Both the position numbers and the translations under genes were made by a program. Below, in pieces: positions 39,064 through 60,211 of a DNA stretch of 64,000 nucleotides. The DNA lies in assembly GCA_951406725.2 (NCBI GenBank), contig OX597831.1, positions 45,322,001-45,386,000 of the forward strand. Direction: 5' to 3'. Every line of letters starts with the position of its first letter. The stretch's first letter is position 1. Origin of the DNA: Octopus vulgaris (Eukaryota). The notes under the pieces are model-generated. The model did not search any database and was not told the DNA's origin. It saw only the letters and a list, made by a program, of their open reading frames with translations.

Positions 39064-39889
39064 CTTCAAAAGAAAAAGAAAATTTTTTTTGAGAATTGTA
39101 ATTTCATGATTACCAGTAGTGTCTGTGGAAATTTCATGTAATATTGAAAACTAAAACAATGTCAACAGTTTATAGAGATCCACAAAATACATTATTTTCA
39201 TTTCATTTTTTTTAAAAAATGCATTTGTGTTTGGCTTTTGAAATGGTGCAAAATCCGCATGGGTGGTACTTAAGTTGCAATCTCAGGAGAGAACATCTTT
39301 GGAAACTATATTCTTTGTTATACACTTATTGTTTTTTTCTACCTTGTTACTAATTATTTTTATGTTTATGTCAAAAAGAAAAGAATCTTAACCATGGAAT
39401 GAAACCAAAGCTGCATTGCTACAGTATGACTATGCTAGTAAATCTTTAATCTGCATGATTTACTACATCATTTAGTTTCATATCAGATGAAAGTTCAAAT
39501 ATTTGGGTTTGAAGCCACAGTCCCAGTCTACAAAGTGCAGTAGTGCTCCCACTGAACTACAGATTCTAGATAGAAAAACAAAAAAGTAATACACACATAA
39601 TCACATTCACATACATTGATAAAAATATACAGAACTGGAAAAAGACTAAAAACATTATAAACAGAAACACACACACATATTTGTACAATTGATGTAAATA
39701 TAGCCTTGCAAGTATATTTCTACTAAATTATACGTGAAATCTGGAGAGAATATCCTTTCTGAGAATGCTTGCATATAACCAACCATGTGATATATGTATA
39801 CAGACTCAACAGTAATTAGAGTATGAGAAAGGATAATTTTTTTTTTTTAGATGTTTATAAACTGTTAGGTCTCTATACATATACAACAT

Positions 39890-40000
39890 CCTGAGTAACA
39901 CACACACCCTAGTGTGAGAGGCTAGATATGACCAGTTTGAGCATTAAACAGGTAGAATATCCTGGCCGGATATGGCCAGTTTAAATGCCAAAGGGTTAAA
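39890..40000 (+). mobile_element. piggyBac-like MITE family A, right half
   Basis: gtgtgagaggctagatatg...aatgccaaagggTTAA. Confidence 0.65.
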
Positions 40001-41724
40001 TGTTTTTATTAAATACAACAATCTGATTATTACTATAGAAGGTGGGTTGTAGAAGGTATAGGAGCTTAAGGAATTAATCAGCTTCAAGAAATTTCTAGAC
40101 AACACCATTACAGAATCATTGAACCATCACTCCCTTAATAAGATGTTGGGGACATAGCTTTAAGCATCTTGCCTAAGAAAGCAATATTATGTCTGCTATG
40201 AAAGCACGCAACATCCTGGGAACCCAGAGGCCTGAAGCATCATCATCATAATCATGACCACATTACACCTATAATACCACCACTGCTGTCTTATCAGAAG
40301 ACAAAAAAAGGTTTTTGTAAAAAACGAACAACACTAGTAGAATTTGGAAATGAAATTTTAAAAGGAAAACTTGGAAACTGATTACAGTTTTTCTTCCAAG
40401 AGTTATAAGTAACTTTTAGAGAAAAAAAGCAGTACATCCAAGAATAATAGTAATAATAATACTCATAGATTTCTCTTGACTAGACACAACAGTATATTGC
40501 CTTATTGATCTTAAGGGATAATGAAAGACAGTTTACCCTAATGGGATTTGAAACTTGTAAGAAAAGGAGAAAACTAAACACTACAAAGCATTTTAGCCTT
40601 ACATCCTATGACCTCAACCATTACCAAATACTGTGATGATGATGATGAGGAGGAGGTAGAGATGATGCTCATGCCTTTCACAATAACAATAGCATAGTAA
40701 ATGAAGCTACTCCAACAAGGAATTGAAACAAAGCCACCAGAAACTATTGCTACATTATGAGCCCACCATCACCACCACTACCATTATGAGCAACTATAAC
40801 AAAACAATAAGCCAACAAGATCCTCCATGTGGTCATTCAAACCTACTAGAAATAGCAGTTACATTTCCTTCAAATCACATCCTAAAGAAAACAAAATAGA
40901 AGACATAAGATGATACACTTTGATCTTCCATCAAAAATAAAACTGGATAGTCATAGCTGGAAAGTCATTTGGCTGAACTGACCTGGCATAAAACAAGAGC
41001 ACAGCAATTACCACTAACGCAATATATACACAATGAAGTAGAAATAAAATACACATTGATATCTTGTGAATTATATAAACAAAACAAAAATAAGATTATA
41101 CAAAAGACACTAGAACAAAAACAAACAAAGAAATCACTTAAAACTGGTCCCTGATTTTAAAATGATAATAATGCCAATAAATTTGCACTGAGTCATATTT
41201 GTAAAATTGACCAAATTGTTTTAAAAGTTACTTTTTGTTTTCATGAAAATAAAGACATCTGCTTTTAAAAGCAACTCAAGGTAAAAATTTTGTTTCAAGA
41301 AAGTTATTGAAACAAACTTGGCAAGATATTAATAAATTTGAAGTAAAAGAAAAAAACATAAGGAACAAATATGAGCTGTCTTTTTTTTTTTGCATTGTTT
41401 TCTGGGTTTTTTTTTCTTTTTGCACTGTACTGAAATTAAATTAAGCAGTTTCTTTAAATGAGCATTAAACTTTTTTTTAAAAACTACTCACAAAGATCTA
41501 ACTTGATAAAAATTGAGATAAAATTATTTAAGGATAAAAAGAAAGTAACTTAAATAAATATCGTTTGTCATTGTTTATAAATTTATTTCATTTTTCTCTC
41601 TTGCTTGGGTTCCTAGCAACCATTAGTTCTCAGAATGAAACTATGTTGTGGATTTAAATATATTAGGAGTAGGGAGAGAAAGGGAAAAAATATATATATA
41701 CCACCACCACCAGTAGTAGTAGTA

Positions 41725-57267: not shown

Positions 57268-57309
57268 CTCATGGTAAAATTGTAATGGCTTTAGCTCAAT
57301 ATAATCCAT
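57268..57309 (-). CDS. TCF12: Candidate alternative first coding exon A (MDYIELKPLQFYHE)
   Basis: ATG at 57309-57307, 14 open codons, consensus donor GAG|GTAAGT. Phase 0 matches the VYSPS exon; unique non-repeat flanking sequence. Confidence 0.55.
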
Positions 57310-60211
57310 TGAAAAGAATTGTTTACAACAAACTATAAGTTCAAGCTTATTTTAGAGAATATATCAACCAAAGAGCATTGTAGCCAAAAAGAGATGTATT
57401 ATTACTTTACTCTATCATTGCATATGCTTTAGCTCCATTACACAGCAAGTGAGTATTACATAGTTGACGTTAAATCTTAATCAAAGCAAACAGAATAGAT
57501 ATTACAAAGAGTGAAATATTTTCACATCCTTACAGTTGCTCCTTCCAACAGAAAGTAAATACTGTGGAAAAAGAAGATCCCAAATAACAGCTCTTTCACT
57601 GTCACTTCCTATCATTGAATGGAAATGAGGTGTTCTTTACAAACATTCTATTTCTGAAGCCAGGAAGTCTTTAAGACTATCCATTATAATATAAAGGTCA
57701 TTTAAACTATTGATTGAACTATTTCTAATAGTAACATCTACTTCAAGTGAGTTCATGACACAATTAGAGAGAGAGACTACCTGAAACTACTGAAGAATAG
57801 GAGGGAAAGAAAATATTAACTAAACAAAAAAAGTAGAAGAAAAACAAAAGTAAGCAAACGAAAGTCAACTATTTAAAAAAATATATACTATTTCATTATG
57901 AATTAGAGAATATCTAATTGAAATAATGCATGGAATAATTGTTAAATAACACACATACACACACAAATACATGCTTGAAAAAAAAAAAAAATTCTTTTAT
58001 CAGTTAGAAAATAATGTTCAATAAAATTGTAGCCAGCTGTTGCATTTTGTTAAATTTTATAAAGAGCAGTAAATGGGAATGGCACAGCTGAGGCTTGCTT
58101 CATTGGCTCAAGTTGAGTGAGCAGATAAACAGCCTTATGTCGTCAAAAATATCGGGTCTTACAGTGAAGCTACAAGTTTTAAATGGCACAGATGAGAACA
58201 ATGGAAAGGGACAAACATACAAATGTTGAACAAGAAGGAAAAGGAATACACTAAGATACATACTAAATATAGTGAGTGAGTGTGTGTGTGGTTGTGTGTG
58301 TGTATGTGTGTGCATACGTGTATATATAGGTAATAATAATAGTGAATTTATAACTAAGAACCTGACATTAAAATATTAAAAAAAAAAAGTTTAAAAACTA
58401 CTGTAACTTTTTTTACATCGCTGCTCCAGATTTAAGTTTTCTGTGGGTGGGGGTCCCAATGAAATTTGGGTTAACTTTACTACTAATTGTCAATAACATT
58501 CTTGGTACAAGGTCCCTCGAGGTGCTTCAATTCATGCAAAACTATACTGACTCAATGTCCTGTGTAGAAATTTTGGTGAGATCAATTTTGCTTTTCTTGC
58601 TGATATACAACCAATAAAACAAGTTTCAATAATCTATTGAGATGAATTCAATTGACTATATTTCCCTAATGGACAAAACGTGACAGGTCAAAATGAAAAT
58701 TAGGATTAAAATTTTTTTTAAAAAAACTCCGACAAATAACAGTCTCTCTCTGGAGAAGAGAAATTGATTAGACCTCTATATACAATGAAATAATAATTTT
58801 GCAAGCTAAGTTTTGTACAGGACATTTATAAATATTGGCTTATTAAAAACAGGTTTTCAAGCTTAATGAACAGGGTATGTGATTAGATGCTAATTTAAAG
58901 GAAAGAAGTAACAAAAACAAAATACAACTAGGAGCATATGTAATGGCAGGGAAGATTGCCATGTTTAGTGATTAAAAAAAAAATTTATGATTCTATTCAA
59001 ATCATTGAATCTGTGACAAGTTAATTTATTCATTGAATATTTCTGTCATACAGGTACATGTGTATGTACCTCGTTGTTGTCACTTGGCCCTATAATAAAA
59101 CTGATTGAGAAGATATAATCAGAAATGTTCCAGCCTGGAAAAATACATTTTATTGTAGATCCAGGAACACAATGTCCAGTGTCCCCTTTCAGTTTTAAGA
59201 TGGAAGGGTTTGATTCGTGGAAAATCTGGTTGTTATTTACAACAGATCAAGCAATCACATAAGTGTGTTTTCATTGGCTTGTAAAGTGGTAGGTACCACA
59301 CACACAACTGCATATGCACACATGCAATGATCCATCTTCTAAAATCTGGCATCCATGTTGCCATGGGCTGAACAGTTTGAGAAGATTTGAAGAGTCGGGA
59401 ATACATCATGCTCCACTGTCTACTCTGGCATGGTTTCTATGAATAGATGCCCTTCCTAATGCTACTATTTTACAGAGTGTACTGGGTGCCTTTTTTCGTG
59501 GCACCAGCACTATCTCGCAAAGTTAAAGGTCTAAAGTAGCCCCTATAATTGAGGGAGAATAGGTGAGAGAGAATGCAGAGATCTTAGGGAGATAGGTGGA
59601 GAGAGTAACAGTAGTAGAATAGGCATTAATAATAGCAGGGAGGGAGGGAAGGGACAAAATGGAAAGGCAATAGTGTAAGTTGTGTGGGAGGGGTCTTTAT
59701 ATATGCATAGAGAGAGAGAGAGAGACAGACGAAGAGGAGATTTTGCTTATAATTGTTTTAGCATGCTAGCATTGGTTAGATGAATATTATATTTGTTTCA
59801 TATTTACAGGTTTTTCCATGCTAGCACGGGAAAGACAAATATTAAACAAACACAAACACACATTATGTGTGTGTGTGTGTGTGTGTGTGTATATGTACGT
59901 ACGTACATATGTATGTATGTATGTGTTGATTCAGCAGTGTCTACATTAAGTTTGCCCCCAAAATGCCAATGATTTTTATGTTCTCCAGTAAAGAAAACTG
60001 AGCTGCTTCATCAGCTGTGATATGTGGAGGCCAAAAGAATTAAAATTACTTTATTTACAAAACCAGTGCGATTTGGTGGCCAAAAGAGTCTCTGGCTATA
60101 TAAAGCATGTAACAATAAAACTCAAGCCTAACTCATACTAATAGGAGAAATGAATGTAAAATCATGCATATATATGAGTGTTTAAACACGTTTGTGTATG
60201 TGTGTGTATGT

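Follow-up and report, generated by a model that had tools for sequence, protein, structure and literature searches.

The stretch of DNA analysed here (the window) comprises 64,000 nucleotides of the Octopus vulgaris assembly GCA_951406725.2 (contig OX597831.1, positions 45,322,001 to 45,386,000). On its minus strand it carries the middle portion of the octopus E-protein gene, and in one large intron of this gene lie three short coding exons, called A, B and C in this text, that probably serve as alternative first exons. When one exon of the window was used as a query, octopus records named 'transcription factor 4/12' were retrieved with 99% identity and with a basic helix-loop-helix domain (bHLH, PF00010), and the window and its flanks are matched one exon after another by TCF4/TCF12-named records carrying PF00010, mostly at 95-100% identity. 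With a bHLH domain and an AD1 motif in one gene, this is a class I bHLH E-protein gene (TCF3/4/12, daughterless). A preliminary description of the stretch had supposed that it is the only one in the animal, and a bHLH search of the octopus genome agrees with this, since one match among four candidates is an E-protein locus and it lies here. The bHLH exons are located past the window start, while mapping of octopus E-protein records places the AD1-motif exon about 71 kb past the window end. The canonical upstream exon encodes a basic KRRK motif and has its phase-0 end at window-equivalent 69560, 5.6 kb past the window end. Downstream of it comes a common exon of 88 nt (38976..39063, minus strand, phase-0 acceptor at 39063), which matches residues 210-238 of octopus E-protein records at 100% and which we, like the preliminary description, take to be the counterpart of human TCF4 exon 10. 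The intron between the two, which holds A, B and C, extends from 39064 to window-equivalent 69559 (30,496 bp, phase 0). Because both AD1 and the exon of the nuclear localization signal (NLS) are upstream of this intron, any transcript begun inside it must lack them, as had been predicted.

Each of the three exons is an ATG-begun open frame on the minus strand that runs into a phase-0 GT donor, so that the positions, frames, donors and phase given for them at the outset, and their fit to the common acceptor at 39063, were all reproduced. The coding part of exon A (43673..43732, 20 amino acids, MYCTTYPFYRTLMYLPPKGN) ends at the donor AAT/GTGAGT, that of exon B (48222..48251, 10 amino acids, MYYYSRPKLQ) at CAG/GTGTGC, and that of exon C (57268..57309, 14 amino acids, MDYIELKPLQFYHE) at GAG/GTAAGT, which of all candidates is the top phase-0 donor. 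A simple donor score places C, B and A at ranks 1, 2 and 8 of the 360 phase-0 ATG..GT candidates found across the whole intron. Exon A has a 5′ leader at 43733..44199, whose likely start region is 44168-44199, where contigs stop without loose letters; the leader of exon C covers at least 57310..57638, and a separate piece from run X5 reaches 57716. A C/T-rich tract at about 48330-48520 precedes exon B. The exons had also been called tyrosine-rich. Tyrosines are indeed present, but not beyond chance: at least three occur in 10%, and at least two in 25%, of 268 random open 15-residue ATG peptides of the same intron, and exon C has merely two per 14 residues. Tyrosine richness, being frequent by chance in an AT-rich intron, was thus dropped as evidence. 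A recent tandem duplication of A, B and C was also rejected, as three regions of 651 bp show no likeness to each other at the DNA level (best E value 0.15). Within the leader of A, the first 10 letters of exon C recur at an upstream ATG (43865-43877), with a phase-1 donor-like site after it; this identity is probably due to chance (E value 0.5). Upstream of exon C, a strong acceptor-like pyrimidine tract and AG at 57781-57790 are followed 9 nt on by a GT donor, and the 9 nt start with a phase-0 TAG. No contig of four runs covers this possible microexon or acceptor, which proves nothing either way.

Are these exons transcribed? The RNA data are assembled contigs from runs none of which is recorded as RNA, and four runs were aligned to 38900-46200 for exon A and four to 56450-58270 for exon C. 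Judged by spliced contigs, X1, X2 and X5 contain RNA. A contig of X1 links the 88-nt exon with its two neighbours, the canonical exon and the next one, and since these make up its loose ends, X1 is spliced RNA. Exon A is found in one contig each of X1, X2 and X5, which belong to three studies, and these contigs extend from 43671 to 44192, 44168 or 44199. At the donor end all three leave exactly 28 letters unaligned, and at the opposite, 5′, end no letter. As the 88-nt exon begins with GT, two letters fit intron and exon alike, and 28 + 2 = 30 letters is the overlap expected, with 31-letter words, into a contig beginning at the merge point; in X2 and X5 a 1157-nt contig starts exactly at 39063. 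The free 5′ ends of exon A at 44168-44199 in three studies hint at a promoter of its own. For exon C, a contig of X2 at 57266-57638 has the same signature at the donor end and no loose 5′ letters. The canonical exon is joined to the acceptor at 39063, which presumably serves A, B and C as well. The preliminary description would have been overturned if all transcripts came to 39063 only from a canonical exon outside the window; instead, the donors of A and C are contig ends that show the overlap expected for 39063. In run X11, from organism B, an unspliced contig has no listed difference over 57250-57333, which takes in the coding part and donor of exon C, against eight listed substitutions in the adjoining intron (57166-57249).

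Counterparts of A, B and C occur at the homologous junction in E-proteins of other animals. A-type starts were found in the annelid Ridgeia (KAK2186930.1) and the bivalves Mytilus (VDH91719.1) and Mizuhopecten (XP_021366278.1). B-type starts are those of the bivalve Sinanodonta (KAL3886752.1), the annelid Dimorphilus (CAD5125194.1/5.1), a partial model of the limpet Lottia, a segment inside a model of the bivalve Pinctada and a protein designated P0206, whereas C-type starts are those of the nemertean Tubulanus (XP_074661185.1), protein P0142 and, weakly, Dimorphilus (CAD5125192.1/3.1), which has B-type and weak C-type starts within one cluster. The start of Tubulanus XP_074661185.1 is identical to exon C at 9/10 residues and that of P0206 to exon B at 7/10. 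Thirteen invertebrate starts were compared by local alignment with A, B, C and 351 control peptides of the same intron (181 distinct ATGs), and seven of the 13 score one octopus exon above all 351 controls. With the control maximum in parentheses, the scores are 78 (30) for Ridgeia, 39 (23) for Mytilus and 31 (29) for Mizuhopecten against A; 42 (24) for P0206 and 25 (23) for Sinanodonta against B; and 47 (21) for Tubulanus X2 and 39 (21) for P0142 against C. The Pinctada segment, being internal to its model, was scored separately from this test, and P0194 (3 residues) as well as the long, model-like starts P0122, P0125, P0147 and P0178 were left out of the tests. Other phase-0 candidates of the intron (62112, 60947, 40767 etc.) are the best match for no homologue start. 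In most homologues the likeness starts at a Met, which is followed by Y/F/F in the A type, Y/F/F/F/F in the B type and D/D/E in the C type, and the conserved stretches are YP and MYLP in A and ELKPLQ in C. From these comparisons, the array is likely to be an old lophotrochozoan feature, older than the cephalopods, rather than an octopus invention.

This conservation also bears on the idea that A, B and C are internal poison cassette exons, spliced from the canonical exon and damping the E-protein via nonsense-mediated decay. The leaders are rich in stops, acceptor-like AGs with an in-frame stop lie upstream of B, and the acceptor-like site at 57790 lies upstream of C, all of which would suit such exons. 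However, the contigs of A and C have free 5′ ends without loose letters, no contig covers 57717-57790, a Met-begun peptide would not be conserved in a poison exon, and the homologues are annotated as protein starts. We therefore hold this explanation to be very improbable.

A search with the common-exon region gave only three full-length cluster representatives. Some further starts were met in the other comparisons. The junction starts of Tubulanus X3 (P0124), Antedon X6 (P0275) and P0176 fit A, B and C poorly and were set aside. That of the crinoid Antedon X6 is weakly A-like and weakly like the vertebrate Alt starts discussed below (123 and 94 of 2000 shuffles, respectively). P0176, a Logan record whose nearest named match is the jellyfish Sanderia, has a short tyrosine-containing start at the same junction and is probably cnidarian, a hint that first exons at this place may predate bilaterians. 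Tyrosine-rich alternative starts are also present at other junctions of E-proteins (P0002, P0011, P0012, P0079, P0287 and P0285, from a decapod-like record, Haliotis, Patella, Ptychodera and a sea cucumber). Among 602 and 235 candidates in the two upstream introns, nothing convincing was found in octopus that would correspond to the upstream starts of Haliotis, Patella and the decapod-like record.

Taken together, we consider it probable that A, B and C are mutually exclusive first exons with their own promoters, placed in one intron of the single E-protein gene and inherited from an ancestor of molluscs, annelids and nemerteans. The layout of variable first exons feeding a constant body, as first proposed, is supported. 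Two parts of that proposal need to be changed. It presented the array as a peculiarity of this animal, which cannot be kept, since bivalves, a limpet, annelids and a nemertean have the tags too, and since vertebrates are known, and the sea urchin is reported, to have an Alt first exon at the same junction. It also regarded the exons as promoter devices only, which falls short, as the peptides themselves are conserved. A promoter for each exon is predicted, and splicing to 39063 and translation from the conserved Met are inferred.

Several observations do weigh against this picture of three promoter-bearing first exons. None of 16 annotated octopod proteins (14 octopus, 2 Argonauta) begins with A, B or C, nor does any of the three proteins of a decapod-like cluster. 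The RNA alignments took in the regions of A and C only. For C the evidence amounts to one contig of depth 4 in one of four runs, no A contig is among the pieces listed for X4, and the acceptor at 39063 is deduced for A and C from the overlap length, not from joined letters. The leaders contain upstream ATGs, nine in A, all stop-closed, and ten in C. A core promoter motif scan, uninformative as it is, found no TATA box near A or B, and acceptor-like AGs about 60 nt upstream of the B ATG mean that B could follow a non-coding exon. Among the homologues, which are mostly gene models with starts picked by eye from lists, some matches are weaker, with 2 of 351 controls scoring as high for Lottia, 5 for the B-type and 15 for the C-type start of Dimorphilus. 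One may ask, then, whether A alone works as an alternative first exon, an ordinary bilaterian Alt exon, with B and C decayed or barely used. In support of this, A is the sole exon seen in three studies, the single contig of C is of low depth, the RNA alignments took in A and C only, and none of the three is in the octopod annotation. Yet in B and C the ATG and the frame are intact, their donors are the best two among 360, their respective identities to distant animals of 7/10 and 9/10 are not expected of a neutral intron, and C is unchanged in organism B. We thus regard activity of A alone as unlikely, and the reading with three working first exons is followed here.

How might such an array act? 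Three internal promoters would each give one leader-plus-tag exon to one constant body. With each tag exon joined to 39063 and its conserved Met as the start of translation, the product would be about 190-200 residues shorter than the 807-residue form, keeping the bHLH domain and the later activation region and losing AD1 and the NLS. For human TCF4, isoforms A, H and I are described as lacking the NLS, entering the nucleus on class II partners, being exported with Id2 and activating more weakly than the AD1-bearing form (PMC3137626). By analogy with TCF4-A, the octopus short forms may activate more weakly, reach the nucleus together with a class II bHLH partner and be drawn out of it by Id proteins. 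As the tags are conserved as peptides, they are likely to be small signal inputs. The most likely kind would be a tyrosine-phosphorylation or docking site, comparable to the YYY motif in the 23-amino-acid tag of mouse HEBAlt, a phospho-mimic of which is described as increasing activity about ten-fold in a JAK-dependent manner (PMC9385190). Promoter choice would then decide both the place where a short form is made and the tag that controls it. A phosphorylation role of the tags is drawn from analogy only, which counts against it, and a tyrosine-based input may be called our best guess, with an N-terminal stability code as its main alternative.

According to that alternative, which builds on the N-degron rules, the tags of real first exons act mainly as N-terminal stability signals through N-terminal acetylation or an N-degron, setting different half-lives. 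A and B begin with Met-Tyr/Phe and C with Met-Asp/Glu, and each type keeps one class of residue at position 2; also, the stability of HEBAlt varies with cell context (PMC9385190). On the other hand, conservation runs well beyond residue 2 (A has YP and MYLP, C has ELKPLQ), further than these rules would require, and stability signals of this kind would be compatible with the three-promoter array. As the main role of the tags, it seems improbable. A wider reading, which we put forward tentatively and hold somewhat less likely than its opposite, is that the ancestor of molluscs, annelids and nemerteans already had three or more coding first exons arrayed on its one E-protein gene and that every tag of 10-20 residues has since persisted as a signalling input of its own, over more than 500 million years. 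In this reading B and C would be tag types not described before, and B may have been copied from the tyrosine-rich second half that the ancestral Alt exon had; two spiralian exons would then represent the two halves of the vertebrate one.

The constant body continues from the common exon towards the window start in further exons on the minus strand (1934..35206), located by tblastn of octopus E-protein records with approximate ends: about 35206-35060, 23815-23590, from 18982, 17064-16975, 16269-16231, 8960-8702, 4198-4124, 3082-2924 and 1966-1934. Some octopus records contain small exons at 16231-16269 and, outside the window, at window-equivalent 106016-106054, which other records or the squid-like P0002 lack; they are likely cassette exons that add isoform variety. 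The intron of A, B and C also contains a nearly pure TA array of 165 bp between B and C (50978-51142) and copies of abundant interspersed repeats at 41900-42600, 45450-45550 and 55050-55450, and the repeats at 42.0-42.6 kb and 45.5 kb attract very high contig depth.

E-proteins are partners that proneural, myogenic and blood-cell bHLH factors cannot do without, and what their short Alt forms do is poorly understood. With three conserved micro-tags attached to a single constant body, the gene offers a natural comparative set for tag function, and A, B and C are isoform-specific markers missing from octopus annotations. At the same time the locus leaves the list of possible cephalopod novelties, as its layout is likely to predate cephalopods. 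No description of first exons of this kind in octopus or other lophotrochozoans was met in the literature searched, which left most subscription papers outside. A 2016 study by Schrankel et al. reportedly presents SpE-Alt of the sea urchin as an alternative, conserved version of the single invertebrate E-protein gene. It is said to describe one sea urchin Alt form and to argue for a bilaterian origin of Alt, and it may bear on the novelty of the octopus exons. Our own sea-urchin search gave two long forms and no Alt start.

In vertebrates the Alt exon has been described before (PMC3346973, PMC9385190, PMC3137626, PMC9666405). HEBAlt of TCF12 and E2-2Alt/TCF4-A (exon 10a), the latter a major brain form (PMC9666405), resemble the octopus exons in being encoded by a short tyrosine-containing coding exon in the intron after the NLS exon, in the phase-0 join to a homologous exon, which in octopus is an inferred one, and in the loss of AD1 and the NLS. 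In vertebrates, the residue to which the Alt starts are joined is homologous to that at the octopus junction at 39063. Exon A shares with them the start M[YF]C..YP, and exon B shares MYYY with the Alt tail. Summed over seven vertebrate-type starts from a profile search (including Syngnathus and Muraenolepis), which are not independent, A scores 191 and B 176 against a control maximum of 164, and 0 of 351 controls reach them. Composition-preserving shuffles reach the Alt score in 21/1000 for A and 2/1000 for B by local alignment, and in 38/1000 and 29/1000 when anchored at the junction. Neither Ridgeia nor Mytilus has an A-type start that is significantly Alt-like (82 and 218 of 1000 shuffles). 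The hhalign probability is 41% for A, at the Alt start, 24% for B, at the MYYY tail, and 0.1% for C. For exon C, homology to Alt is not supported, as 100 of 351 controls score as high. Exon A, the best Alt-exon candidate, is likely to be orthologous to the Alt exon, though this is not proved: position and phase agree, and the support from sequence is modest. B is a second candidate orthologue. The YYY motif is confined to B, is FYY or FYL in the homologues of B, and is seen in neither A nor C. The second half of A resembles B-type starts (for Sinanodonta B against A, 3 of 351 controls score as high), a hint that B may be a partial copy.

Human TCF4 has three 5′ exons, 10a-10c, for isoforms A, H and I before exon 10 (PMC3137626), and the octopus gene likewise has three alternative 5′ exons ahead of one internal exon; between human 10b/10c and octopus B/C the likeness is in number alone and may be coincidence. 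Unlike vertebrate Alt, the octopus array holds three distinct coding tags: A with 20 amino acids without YYY, B with 10 amino acids with YYY, and C without likeness to Alt. The octopus array is thus likely to be the known Alt design widened to three, with one Alt-like exon and two further conserved tags.

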